NCBI GenBank assembly: GCA_902801125.1
Contig: CADCGT010000006.1
Span: forward strand, 578-64,577
From: an uncultured Pseudomonadota bacterium
GTDB taxonomy: Bacteria > Pseudomonadota > Alphaproteobacteria > Rs-D84
Direction of reading: 5' to 3'
Length of the DNA: 64,000 bases
Part shown: positions 4,270 through 7,298 of the stretch, piece by piece
Position numbering within the stretch: position 1 is the first letter of the stretch
How the letters are laid out: each line of letters opens with the position of its first letter
The notes under the pieces: generated by a model
The model's input: the letters and a program-made list of their open reading frames with translations, nothing else
What the model was told of the DNA's origin: nothing
Databases searched by the model: none
Made by a program: the position numbers and the translations under genes

Positions 4270-4542
4270 ATGAACAAACAACAATTGATTGAAGCAATCG
4301 CAAACGAAGTAGATGTGACCAAAGCAACCGCTGCGGCATGCCTGGACGCATTTATCAACACCGTCACCAAAGTTCTTAAAAAGAAAGGCGACGTTCGTTT
4401 GGTCGGTTTTGGAACATTCACAACCGCAAAACGCAAAGCCACCACTGGCCGCAACCCGCAAACGGGTGCTGCGATTAAGATTCCGGCATCGACCCAGCCG
4501 AAATTTAAACCTGGCAAGGCTTTGAAAGACGCTTTGAATTAA
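4270..4542 (+). CDS. hupB: HU/IHF-family nucleoid DNA-binding protein
   Basis: MNKQQLIEAIANE...GFGTFTTAKRKATTGRNPQTGAAIKIPA is the canonical HU fold sequence. RBS is AAAGGAGAAATAA ATG. Confidence 0.9.
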   Translation: MNKQQLIEAIANEVDVTKATAAACLDAFINTVTKVLKKKGDVRLVGFGTFTTAKRKATTGRNPQTGAAIKIPASTQPKFKPGKALKDALN

Positions 4543-4695: not shown

Positions 4696-6387
4696 TTAGA
4701 ACAATTTGAATTTATAATTTGTTCCTGCACGGATTGCAAATTGGGTTTTGTCACCCGTTGCAACACCGGCGCCGGCATTGACCGACCAATTGTCAGACAA
4801 CCCCATTGTGGCCCCAAATGCGACCGCAGATTGGTCATTGTAATAACCATATCCACCGCCGACCGATACTTCGCCACGTTTAACATTTGACACAGACACA
4901 GCCGACAAAGCGGTTGCCGCCGCAACACCGCCGGACACATTCTTTTCAAGTGTATCAACCTTTTTGTCGGTGTATGCGTTTGCGCGCGCCAATGTTTCGG
5001 CATTTGCCGACGCAAATTCATTGCGCAGTGCATCTTCGGCCGCGGTTGCGCGCCCTGCTTCGGCTTCAATTGCATCTTGCAATTCTTGGTCCGCAGATTC
5101 ACGCGCCGTCTTTTCGGTATCGATTTTGCCATCGGTGTATCCGTTCGCCTCGTCTATTGCTTCGCCTTTGGCCGTTGCAATCGCTTCATTGCGCGCTTCC
5201 ACTTCGGCATCGATTTTTTCATTTGTATATGCGTTCGCGTTTTGTTCCGCGGTGTCCGCCGAACCAGCCTCGTCATAATTAGACGCCAAACCGTCCGCAT
5301 ACTCTTGGGCGGCTTGTTCCGTTGCATCCAACGCGTTCTTGATATCACCATCCGCGATTGAAGCGGCAATCGCATCGTTCGCGCCATCCGTAATGGTTGT
5401 TGTAATTGGTGCATCATATACCGCCAATGCATCATTGCGGGCACCGTCGTTGGCATCGTATGCCGATACCGCCGCCGCTTGTGCTTCCTGGGCATCGGTC
5501 AACAAAGTCAATGCATCCGTATAAGTTCCATAATTTGTGGTCAGGGTATCAATTGTACCAGCGTCCGTATTATAAACCGTATTGGCATTATCAAATGCGG
5601 TCACTTCGGCCGCCGCATAACCATCAACGGTTGTTTTTGCCGTCGTAATTGCGGCAGAATCAGCCACAAATGCCGCAACCATTTCATTGCACGCGGTTTC
5701 AAGTGCCGTTCCGGCATCTGGGGTGACAACAATATTATTCGCATCAACAACGCCATCACCAGATGCATTTACATGGTAAACTGCACCGGTATCTGGGTCT
5801 GTATAGGAATACATATCACCGGTTAATGTGGGGGCCGCAGAACCGTCTGTGACATCAACAGATTCCGTGTTTGCATATGTGGCATTCAAAGCAACTGTTT
5901 CAGTAAATGATTGTGCCATATCACCCAAAGTCACGGTTTCACCCGCACCATTAACATATTGGTAATTGTCGCGTGAAATTTGTTCGTCTGCGGCGATTGT
6001 TTGATTTGATATAACGTTTGTTCCGTCCGCCACGCTTGCGCCGCTAAAATCACCCGCCGTTAAATCCGTCCCGGATGTCAAATCCGCCTGATTGCCTTCG
6101 GCGTTGGTATATGTAAAATCTGTCAAATCCGGGTCTGTGGACTGATTTGCCACATTAACGGTATCGCCATTTGAATTTACATATTGATACCCTACACCTG
6201 CGACGGCATCATCAACATTTACAATATCGCCACTGGCGTTTGTATAATTGCCGGCAAATGTGACATCTGTGTTTGCATTGGCCACAGAAGTGCTTAATGC
6301 GATAACACCCGCCAAGAATGCGTGGCGCAATACCGCACGATACTGGGCCGACAATTCTTTGATTGTTGTTTTGGATTGTCTTATCAT
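4696..6387 (-). CDS. trimeric autotransporter adhesin (YadA-like)
   Basis: Signal-peptide-like N-terminus. Long Ala/Thr/Asp-rich stalk with coiled-coil neck (NANAYTNEKIDAEVEARNEAIATAKGEA...). C-terminal about 70-aa YadA-type membrane anchor ending ...AIRAGTNYKFKLF. SD AAGGGA upstream. Confidence 0.8.
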   Translation of the reverse strand: MIRQSKTTIKELSAQYRAVLRHAFLAGVIALSTSVANANTDVTFAGNYTNASGDIVNVDDAVAGVGYQYVNSNGDTVNVANQSTDPDLTDFTYTNAEGNQADLTSGTDLTAGDFSGASVADGTNVISNQTIAADEQISRDNYQYVNGAGETVTLGDMAQSFTETVALNATYANTESVDVTDGSAAPTLTGDMYSYTDPDTGAVYHVNASGDGVVDANNIVVTPDAGTALETACNEMVAAFVADSAAITTAKTTVDGYAAAEVTAFDNANTVYNTDAGTIDTLTTNYGTYTDALTLLTDAQEAQAAAVSAYDANDGARNDALAVYDAPITTTITDGANDAIAASIADGDIKNALDATEQAAQEYADGLASNYDEAGSADTAEQNANAYTNEKIDAEVEARNEAIATAKGEAIDEANGYTDGKIDTEKTARESADQELQDAIEAEAGRATAAEDALRNEFASANAETLARANAYTDKKVDTLEKNVSGGVAAATALSAVSVSNVKRGEVSVGGGYGYYNDQSAVAFGATMGLSDNWSVNAGAGVATGDKTQFAIRAGTNYKFKLF

Positions 6388-6456
6388 GATTTTTTCCCTT
6401 TTGTTTGTTTAACGTTAATCCCGAAAAGGCCTTTCCTTTTGGAACATGAATAAATG

Positions 6457-6480
6457 GTAAAAAAACCTAGGTTTTTTTAC
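6457..6480. promoter_or_regulatory. hix/gix-like serine-invertase crossover site 1 (perfect 24-bp palindrome GTAAAAAAACCTAGGTTTTTTTAC)
   Basis: Compared from memory with Hin hixL TTCTTGAAAACCAAGGTTTTTGATAA and Gin gix sites: an A/T-rich arm, then AAACC, a central dinucleotide, then GGTTT. Confidence 0.6.
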
Positions 6481-6561
6481 GCCTGGTTTGGCAAAATTTG
6501 CGAATTTTATTACCCATTGTTTTTACTGTAAAAAAAATTTTTCATTTTTTGAAAAAAGTGG

Positions 6562-6567
6562 TTGACA
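6562..6567 (+). promoter_or_regulatory. candidate -35 hexamer TTGACA located just inside the putative invertible segment
   Basis: A consensus TTGACA abuts site 2, and a TAnnnT-like -10 lies across the site (TATACC) at 17-18 bp spacing. By palindrome symmetry an equivalent -10 (TACCAT on the minus strand) lies across site 1 facing the adhesin gene. Confidence 0.35.
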
Positions 6568-6588
6568 ATAAACCTAGGTTTTTTCTAT
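6564..6588. promoter_or_regulatory. hix/gix-like crossover site 2 (AATAAACCTAGGTTTTTTCTATA)
   Basis: Second copy of the AAACCTAGGTTT core, 107 bp centre-to-centre from site 1, immediately upstream of the recombinase gene. Confidence 0.55.
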
Positions 6589-6695
6589 ACCCCTTGAAAA
6601 CCGTCAACCCCGGTACTACATTGTGTTTGAAGTATGGGCGCCGTTTTTTTCGGTGCCTGTTTTTTTATAAATTACAGCATAAAAAGGAAACTATC

Positions 6696-7298
6696 ATGAT
6701 TTATGGTTATTGCCGCGTTTCAACCACGCATCAACACGAAGAAAACCAGCATTTTGTAATAGAAAAATTCGCACGAAAAAATAATTTGACGGTTGATATG
6801 TGGATAGAAGAAAAAATTTCAAGCGGAAAAAGATTAAAAGACCGCAAATTGGGCGCACTGTTAAACGAATTGAAATCTGGCGATATACTTATCACAACCG
6901 AAATATCCCGCCTTGGGCGCAGTTTGTTGGAAGTAATGGGAATTTTACAGATGTGCCTTGAACGCGATTGCCAGGTATGGACACTTAAAGAAAATTTTAG
7001 GCTTGGGACCGATATTCAATCAAAAGTTTTGGCGTTCGCGTTCGGACTGTCGGCGGAATTGTCGCGGTCACTGTTGCGGGAACGGGTGCGCGAAAGCCTT
7101 GCGCGGTTAAAGGCGGGTGGTAAAAAACTTGGCCGGCCAATCGGCGCACAATCGCGCGTATTAAAACTTACCAGGAATCAAAAGCGCGTCGCCCTGTTGA
7201 TGGCCCAAGGCGTAACAAAAACCGAAATCGCACGAATTATGCGTGTGCACAAGGTCACACTTTATAAATACCTAAGGAGCATGGGCCTTATGGAATAA
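6696..7298 (+). CDS. serine recombinase, DNA invertase/resolvase family (Hin/Gin/Pin-like)
   Basis: MIYGYCRVSTTHQ carries the catalytic Ser in the YxRVST motif. About 200 aa with a C-terminal HTH (GVTKTEIARIMRVHKVTLYKYL). Start chosen at the internal ATG 6696 of ORF 6498..7298. Confidence 0.85.
   Translation: MIYGYCRVSTTHQHEENQHFVIEKFARKNNLTVDMWIEEKISSGKRLKDRKLGALLNELKSGDILITTEISRLGRSLLEVMGILQMCLERDCQVWTLKENFRLGTDIQSKVLAFAFGLSAELSRSLLRERVRESLARLKAGGKKLGRPIGAQSRVLKLTRNQKRVALLMAQGVTKTEIARIMRVHKVTLYKYLRSMGLME

Follow-up and report, generated by a model that had tools for sequence, protein, structure and literature searches.

The question raised by the locus described here is whether the short intergenic region between two divergent genes, encoding a YadA-type (trimeric autotransporter) adhesin and a small serine recombinase, is an invertible element and, if so, what its inversion would control. 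The locus lies within a 64-kb stretch of chromosomal DNA (referred to below as the window) of an uncultured alphaproteobacterium of the order Rs-D84. An initial annotation of the window had proposed that a short inverted segment carrying only a -35 promoter element switches the adhesin gene. The comparative analysis presented below bears out this central claim, in that natural variants show the inversion, while the promoter logic is predicted from sequence. The locus is very likely a phase-variation switch, in which a split promoter, flipped by an Mpi-like recombinase, controls the YadA-type adhesin. The positions of all the features discussed are summarized in Table 1.

Table 1. Features of the switch locus and its surroundings (positions are those of the window).
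Feature	Position	Strand	Remarks
Invertible segment, 107 bp	6469..6575	.	State R in the window: -35 towards the recombinase gene
Site 1, hix-like, 26 bp	6456..6481	.	Perfect 24-nt palindrome GTAAAAAAACCTAGGTTTTTTTAC at 6457-6480; central dinucleotide T6468-A6469
Site 2, hix-like	6563..6588	.	Core AAACCTAGGTTT at 6570-6581; central dinucleotide T6575-A6576
Predicted mobile half-promoter	6552..6567	+	A-tract 6552-6557 (UP-element-like) and -35 TTGACA 6562-6567, in site 2 inner arm
Predicted fixed -10 TACCAT (ATGGTA on plus strand)	6454..6459	-	Overlaps site 1 outer arm
Adhesin Shine-Dalgarno sequence (SD) AAGGGA	6395-6400	-	From sequence
Hairpin in predicted adhesin 5′ untranslated region (UTR)	6418..6445	-	-9.5 kcal/mol, z-score -0.95; weak evidence
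Promoter-like match inside segment: TTTACA, 17 nt, TAAAAT	6504..6532	-	Best match in promoter scan of 6300-6800 (10/12)
Predicted fixed promoter P2: TTGAAA, 17 nt, TACATT	6594..6622	+	Promoter scan; just outside site 2
Terminator-like hairpin and T-run, recombinase leader	6634..6667	+	10-pair stem with 6 G-C, then TTTTTTT; -16.3 kcal/mol
Small serine recombinase, Mpi-like, 200 aa	6696..7298	+	SD AAGGAA 6684-6689; presumed catalyst
YadA-type adhesin, 563 aa	4696..6387	-	YadA_anchor at residues 504-560 (Pfam); long signal-peptide-like N-terminus; presumed target gene
HU-type gene	4270-4542		Neighbor of the adhesin gene
Open reading frame (ORF), 63 aa	4505-4696	-	Abuts the adhesin stop codon; no NCBIfam match
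Protein with zinc ribbon and TM2 domain, 106 aa	7313-7633	-	Converges on the recombinase gene

Inversion at these sites occurs in nature, and both the sites and the promoter halves are conserved. Ten contigs of the same species, which encode an identical recombinase, were all found to have the window orientation (termed state R), and an eleventh, encoding a 99%-identical variant (P0001), is unflipped as well. Scanning of JGI metagenomes for a junction that exists only after inversion (GTAAAAAAACCTAGGTTTATTGTCAAC) identified one matching contig, L091, whose recombinase differs from that of the window by 1 residue. Altogether, 12 of the 13 contigs of this species share the window orientation, L091 being the exception. 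The flanks of L091 are collinear with those of the window (192/194 and 187/194 identical positions), and its inner segment matches that of the window at 92 of 95 positions when flipped, compared to 52 of 95 when unflipped. Two of its three in-segment single nucleotide polymorphisms (SNPs) are also present in unflipped strains (one of these only in L007), which argues that L091 is a natural variant rather than an assembly artefact. Comparison of the window with L091 places the two crossovers within positions 6460–6474 and 6570–6584, and both intervals include the central TA.

The same was observed in relatives. Loci L021 and L023 are identical at 193 of 194 positions on each side, while their inner segments match at 97 of 99 positions flipped and at 57 of 99 unflipped. 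The wider survey comprised 30 loci of Candidatus Enterousia (order Rs-D84); 31 site pairs were called in all, and the orientation could be determined in 29 species-level loci: the -35 element faces the recombinase gene in 23 of them (state R) and the upstream gene in six (state L). The inversion of a segment of about 107 bp bounded by two hix-like sites, as first proposed, is therefore seen both within the species and among its relatives, and the occurrence of one locus in two orientations, with breakpoints at inverted repeats, is what characterizes an inverton. One further pair, L039 and L040 (SIG52, both from a single metagenome-assembled genome, MAG), has similar flanks and opposite -35 orientations; it was set aside as too diverged for a clean flip.

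The two palindromes were found to share a core and to lie 107 bp apart (centers between 6468 and 6469 and between 6575 and 6576), exactly as described in the initial annotation. With at most one mismatch allowed, the sequence AAACCTAGGTTT occurs only at these two sites within the window (0.14 occurrences expected), and the looser pattern AAACCNNGGTTT revealed further sites in the 64 kb only at the level of chance (8 found, 5.3 expected). Both sites fit a 26-bp plan in which a 2-bp core separates two inverted 12-bp half-sites, and they are placed in inverted orientation. In the relatives, the sites are located approximately 220–230 and 110–125 nt upstream of the recombinase start, with a center spacing of mostly 106–111 bp. 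The central dinucleotides (left/right) are AA/TT in 18 pairs, TT/AA in three and TA/TA in nine; in the last pair, that of L083, CT/TC was called weakly and gave no orientation. A direct-repeat configuration of the cores was found in none of the 31 pairs. The AA/TT, TT/AA and TA/TA inverted cores are a signature that points to sites of the inversion type.

It had been suggested that the palindromic TA core of the window would normally remove control over orientation. The TA core is particular to some species, that of the window among them, most relatives having AA/TT. Species with TA cores occur in both orientations (the window versus L091, and L022 and L025 in state L versus L038 in state R). 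In the Hin system, ligation in the recombinant orientation is blocked when the core nucleotides do not match (PMC4817059); if the core is symmetric, it would have to be the geometry of the synapse that sets the orientation.

To compare the promoter elements, the switches were aligned after normalization to one orientation. In this alignment, the motif AAAAAA..GGTTGAC(A/T) is conserved, and TTGAC or TTGAT is always located on one inner arm, at positions 9–14 from a site center. The outer arm on the adhesin side contains TAnnnT at 16–18 nt (usually 17) from the point where the -35 would land after inversion in 28 of the 30 loci, the inner positions of this hexamer being variable (TACCAT, TATCAT, TATACT, TAACAT, TAGAAT, TACCGT and others). 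At the mirror position of the recombinase-side arm, TAnnnT was found in none of the 30 loci. The inner arms have the same TACC as the adhesin-side outer arm and continue with GCC instead of AT, so the final T of the -10 hexamer is specific to the adhesin side.

When the L state was generated in silico, an adhesin-facing sigma-70-like promoter appeared at one fixed position in 24 of the 30 loci. With the R state, an adhesin-facing match of any kind was obtained in only five loci, at scattered positions. The switch is predicted to be a split promoter, with the adhesin ON only when the -35 element faces its gene; since ON has this requirement, the window represents the predicted OFF state and L091 the predicted ON state. 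The -35 element, the minus-strand TACCAT and the adhesin SD had all been correctly recognized in the initial annotation. A -10 of the form TAnnnT across site 2, also proposed there, could not be upheld, as the hexamers at this position are CTATAC (17-nt spacing) and TATACC (18 nt), neither of which ends with T. A hairpin was noted by eye in relatives at the same spot as that in the predicted adhesin 5′ UTR, with a different sequence; this is weak evidence.

The predicted OFF state (R) predominates in the assemblies, both in this species (12/13 contigs) and across species (23/29 loci). Two classes of half-sites could be distinguished, short (GGTTTTTnnACC) and long (GGTTwAAwnTnAACCAyTT). In state R, each site pairs arms of the same class and is near-symmetric, whereas in state L both sites are hybrid. 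It may be speculated that this difference biases the direction of switching and produces the excess of R. One relative, L015, has a site 2 core (L015:3870-3885) that reads ATTCCTTGGTTT rather than AAACC..GGTTT, and this variant may be mutationally locked OFF.

One alternative reverses the polarity of the switch. According to it, a complete promoter within the segment (minus strand, 6532 to 6504) makes the window adhesin-ON, and the flip either turns the adhesin OFF or drives the recombinase gene. The in-segment match is indeed the best-scoring one in the region 6300–6800, agreeing with the consensus at 10 of 12 positions. However, it is confined to the species of the window; adhesin-facing matches in the R state are few and scattered (5/30), compared to 24/30 for the split promoter, and at a GC content of 0.34 promoter matches are expected by chance. 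With no counterpart at that position in other species, the match is probably such a chance occurrence in A/T-rich DNA, and a reversed polarity is considered unlikely.

The recombinase gene would be transcribed separately, and a candidate promoter for it, P2, was found directly beside site 2. A P2-like element (TTGAMA, 16–18 nt, TAnnnN) starts 16–18 nt from the center of site 2 in 20 of the 30 relatives, and at about 36 nt in four more; CTTGAMA and TATAT are conserved columns of the switch alignment. Per-locus folding revealed a GC-rich hairpin followed by at least five T residues between P2 and the ATG codon in 24 of the 30 relatives, with stems of differing sequence. RNAalifold recovered only 4 pairs from the recombinase leader, the alignment being too gappy, and an Rfam search of the region 6200–6900 gave nothing near the gathering score. 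P2 would be the recombinase's own promoter, providing constitutive but attenuated expression, and the leader hairpin would act as the attenuator that keeps the recombinase at a low level. Enzyme bound at site 2 could also affect P2, and in this way regulate its own synthesis.

These observations bear on a second alternative, in which the mobile -35 element forms part of a promoter in both orientations, so that expression would alternate between the adhesin and the recombinase. Such reciprocal control of the recombinase had been part of the original proposal, and the right arm of the window does contain a -10-like TATACC at 18-nt spacing. However, this hexamer lacks the final T; TAnnnT at 16–18 nt is present on the recombinase side in 0/30 loci, many of which have GCGACC or TTGAAC there, and the stretch from site 2 to the recombinase gene contains a separate, conserved fixed promoter (24/30). 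Reciprocal switching was abandoned as distinctly unlikely.

A third alternative explains the inverted contigs by artefacts of assembly, or by ancient rearrangements that have become fixed, with no ongoing switching. The data do consist of consensus assemblies only, and all but one of the 13 contigs of the species share one orientation. Nevertheless, the repeats (12–24 bp) are expected to be shorter than the final k-mers of the assemblers, so that a flipped assembly needs supporting reads; flipped and unflipped versions differ by 2–3 nt and their flanks are approximately 97–99% identical, which indicates that the inversions are recent, and inversions recur in several species. In addition, L033 (JBKSNB010000041.1, a 1,986-bp MAG contig) starts within the inner arm of site 1 (positions 1–20, TTTTGCACC...); a sample containing both orientations would be expected to give a break inside site 1. 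Artefacts or fixed rearrangements are very unlikely to account for these results.

The enzyme responsible for the inversion is presumably the neighboring recombinase, an assignment that follows from adjacency and co-conservation, as the recombinase gene adjoins the sites at every related locus. Its annotation as a 200-aa small serine recombinase was supported by a match to the Pfam Resolvase domain (residues 2–143, E 8e-30), while the C-terminal helix-turn-helix (HTH) noted earlier was matched weakly, below threshold (HTH_7, residues 157–194, 22.4 bits versus a cut-off of 23.8 bits). The ATG codon at 6696 was taken as the start because the homologs all begin with MIYGYCRVS. Orthologs from many species are 74–84% identical, the catalytic domain is largely invariant, and none of the catalytic residues R7, S9, R72 and R75 varies among 33 orthologs. 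The protein has the catalytic Ser and conserved Arg residues of small serine recombinases, with the HTH region sub-threshold. Such conservation is in keeping with purifying selection on a host gene, and not with an enzyme of a mobile element.

As regards the family, the best match among solved structures is the Gin invertase (E 8e-12), with the resolvases of Tn3 and gamma-delta next (E about 1e-6). Identity to Gin amounts to 31% over 198 aligned positions, while Hin, Gin, Cin and Pin are approximately 60% identical or more among themselves. The NCBIfam model for Mpi, NF009949, gave the strongest match (E 4e-77; residues 1–197 of the 203-position model), with a score of 258.4 bits against a cut-off of 272 bits. 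By sequence comparison, Mpi is the closest named family, although a near miss, and the protein is not an equivalog by the NCBI rule. Membership in the Hin/Gin/Cin/Pin group was rejected on the basis of the identity to Gin and the NCBIfam result. The original description as a Hin/Gin-type invertase holds as far as the sites are hix-like and Gin is the nearest structure, but the enzyme itself is nearest to Mpi. The accompanying remark, that 107 bp is odd for a family with segments of about 1 kb, made the wrong comparison, since Mpi, whose segments are short, is nearer.

A Tn3-type res system was also considered and rejected, as the locus has two sites only, gives an inversion product and occupies a syntenic position in the chromosome. 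Features in common with Tn3/gamma-delta resolvase and res are a small serine recombinase, sites between divergent genes that overlap promoters, and possible autoregulation; the differences are that the window locus undergoes inversion and not resolution, and has two sites in place of three subsites, in the chromosome. It is extremely improbable that the sites serve only as operators or as a res-like accessory site, with the recombinase or some other regulator acting on the divergent genes through them and no strands being exchanged: the layout does recall res between divergent genes, where the resolvase represses both, site 2 abuts P2, and the palindromic TA core is also that of res site I, but inverted versions of the exact segment are present in the species and its relatives, L091 and L023 contradict this as a sole function, there are no three subsites, and most relatives have AA/TT inverted-repeat cores. 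Operator binding may take place in addition to inversion.

Taken together, the proposed mechanism of the split-promoter switch is as follows. The recombinase would bind the two 26-bp hix-like sites, exchange strands at the central dinucleotides and invert the 107 bp between them. The segment would contain no complete promoter, but only the A-tract and the -35 TTGACA, 9–14 bp from one crossover point, and its flanks would be asymmetric, with a -10 TACCAT in the adhesin-side outer arm and none on the recombinase side. In the ON state, the -35 pointing towards the adhesin gene would form the promoter TTGACA, 17 nt, TACCAT, in which the spacer is the recombination site, and the adhesin would be transcribed. 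In the OFF state (that of the window), the -35 would point towards the recombinase gene and no promoter would be formed. The recombinase would be transcribed separately from P2, which abuts site 2, through the terminator-like leader hairpin; the hairpin would keep the enzyme level, and hence the switching rate, low, and the enzyme would be placed to regulate its own promoter.

Several points weigh against this mechanism. With regard to catalysis, a 107-bp loop leaves very little room for synapsis, neither an enhancer nor an accessory factor was recognized by sequence at the locus, and the enzyme has Ser in place of an Asp conserved in Hin, Gin and the resolvases (ISRLGR versus LDRLGR). With regard to transcription, the match at 6532–6504 outscores the others, is complete, and faces the adhesin gene in the supposed OFF state; moreover, the -10 overlaps a recombinase half-site (TACC is common to the inner arms), and part of its conservation could result from recombinase binding and not from promoter function. 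The promoter calls follow sigma-70 consensus rules from Escherichia coli, applied to an uncultured alphaproteobacterium. Finally, the evidence is comparative throughout and derives from consensus assemblies, and the related loci share ancestry, so that proportions such as 28/30 correspond to fewer independent cases than they suggest.

A bolder version of the mechanism, to which we would assign somewhat less than an even chance, holds that (i) the site itself is the sigma-70 spacer, only the -35/UP half moves, and polymerase and recombinase compete for approximately 30 bp in the ON state, (ii) the 106–111-bp loop synapses without a distant enhancer, helped by A-tract bending or HU, and (iii) the module is the main attachment control in probable epibionts or parasites. 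To our knowledge, a serine recombinase acting on 106–111 bp would invert a shorter segment than any other enzyme of its class. The presence of hupB nearby had been cited in support of assistance by HU. An HU-type gene was indeed identified beside the adhesin gene, but it is a mere conserved neighbor and constitutes evidence neither way. A semi-conserved motif, ATTGTTTTTA, is present in the middle of the segment (window positions 6510–6530) and in the relatives; it could be a site of accessory-protein binding or of bending.

Judged by the sequences, the nearest known system is the Mpi-type promoter inverton, but with hix-like sites. The Mpi repeat consensus differs from the AAACC-NN-GGTTT sites of the window, and the invertible segments of Bacteroides are approximately 170–220 bp long and contain a whole promoter, whereas that of the window has 107 bp and the -35 half only. 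Mpi (Ssr2) of Bacteroides fragilis is likewise a serine recombinase of about 200 aa from a gut bacterium, which flips promoter regions in front of genes for surface structures (PMC5903667, PMC10403206). At least 13 regions of the B. fragilis genome are inverted by this enzyme, among them the polysaccharide promoters at seven loci (PMC5903667, PMC10403206). While Mpi acts in trans on these scattered regions (PMC5903667), the enzyme of the window lies beside a single switch, with no other sites in these 64 kb of a genome of roughly 1 Mb, and its host is an alphaproteobacterium.

The Hin/hix system of Salmonella and the Gin/gix system of phage Mu resemble the window locus in that inversion governs a surface protein and in the inverted AA/TT cores that most relatives have. 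They differ in the length of the segment (approximately 1–4 kb versus 107 bp); in addition, the recombinase gene of the window lies outside the segment and only half a promoter moves. The inner sequence of hixL is AAACC-NN-GGTTT, the same as in the sites of the window. The general plan is also common to both, namely 26-bp sites composed of two 12-bp inverted half-sites and a 2-bp core (for hix, see PMC4817059). Hin, however, requires a 60-bp enhancer (PMC4817059), whereas no Fis-bound enhancer was identified by sequence at the switch of the window. The fimS and ipuS elements of E. coli are similar in having a short invertible promoter beside recombinase genes that turns an adhesin ON or OFF, and ipuS, an element of 260 bp, governs expression of the autotransporter UpaE (PMC6083910). 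These elements depend on tyrosine recombinases and 7–9-bp repeats, with the whole promoter inside (PMC6083910), in contrast to the serine enzyme, palindromic hix-like sites and split promoter of the window.

The presumed target gene was correctly annotated as a divergent, YadA-like adhesin gene starting at 6387 on the minus strand, and a YadA_anchor domain was found at the end of its product. In nine of the ten relatives tested, the gene divergent from the recombinase also encodes a YadA_anchor protein, and many other divergent genes have one of two common N-termini (MxRQSKTTIKELSAQYR or MKKHLILTSL). The adhesin differs in length among strains of the species (563, 587, 589 and 593 aa in the window and L001–L010), while the switch and the recombinase are nearly identical; the differences suggest variation in passenger-domain repeats. 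The locus is located in the chromosome between alaS and ligA, among housekeeping genes (alaS, the HU gene, ligA and a class A penicillin-binding protein gene), and it is syntenic across all contigs of the species. No transposase was called at the window locus or at the loci of the same species, and the base composition at the window showed no sign of a foreign island, the region being strongly A/T-rich (GC 0.34). Independent metagenomes of gut and rumen yielded at least 23 contigs encoding an identical recombinase; one of these contigs is a 1.0-Mb scaffold, and the gene order is constant.

Several additional features of these loci were observed. The 63-aa ORF abutting the adhesin gene was called in most contigs of the species (L009 has a shorter, 48-aa ORF there), and it may encode a partner co-transcribed with the adhesin. 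The gene for the 106-aa zinc ribbon/TM2 protein is present in all contigs of the species, and the switch seems unrelated to it. The regions of translation start of the adhesin and recombinase genes (SD, ATG and the next two bases) form a 20-nt inverted repeat (6383–6402 versus 6681–6700, 85% complementary); this probably reflects only the similarity of the SD sequences, and by eye it is not kept in the relatives. Loci L027 and L032 have a variant layout, with the center of site 2 located 54 nt before the recombinase ATG, an upstream gene that does not encode an adhesin (a 335-aa ORF in L032), and neither P2 nor the leader hairpin detected. Several genomes encode two to four paralogous recombinases (L057, L077, L079 and L089 in one horse-faeces MAG, L029 with L042, and L039 with L040), and such genomes may each contain several switches.

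A description of this system was not found in the searched literature, the coverage of which was incomplete; the same search revealed no report of inversion in Rs-D84, nor of a trimeric autotransporter linked to a serine-recombinase inverton, and the phrase "split promoter" was not found together with inversion, recombinase and phase variation in the top-ranked literature. Control of an autotransporter adhesin by an invertible promoter is already known from ipuS/UpaE (PMC6083910). What is distinctive is that the crossover site coincides with the predicted promoter spacer, that half a promoter moves, that the segment has only about 107 bp, and that the module is conserved in a lineage with reduced genomes. 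If the proposed mechanism is true, a crossover-split promoter on a loop of about 107 bp would extend what is known of short-range synapsis by serine invertases and, as a natural design for recombinase-based genetic memory, the switch would be very compact. The "recombinase family protein" labels in these MAGs probably denote host switch enzymes and not markers of mobile elements.

The relatives of the locus belong to uncultured Alphaproteobacteria named Candidatus Enterousia. Genomes of the order Rs-D84, known from uncultured gut and rumen bacteria, have approximately 0.75–1 Mb and are metabolically reduced, with most biosynthetic pathways missing (PMC12306168). Ca. Enterousia and other Rs-D84 bacteria probably depend on attachment to something, and the adhesin switch, if true, would be among the few regulatory devices that this lineage has retained. 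Since the ratios of the two orientations can be read from existing metagenomes, the switch would offer a handle on the lifestyle of Ca. Enterousia and Rs-D84.

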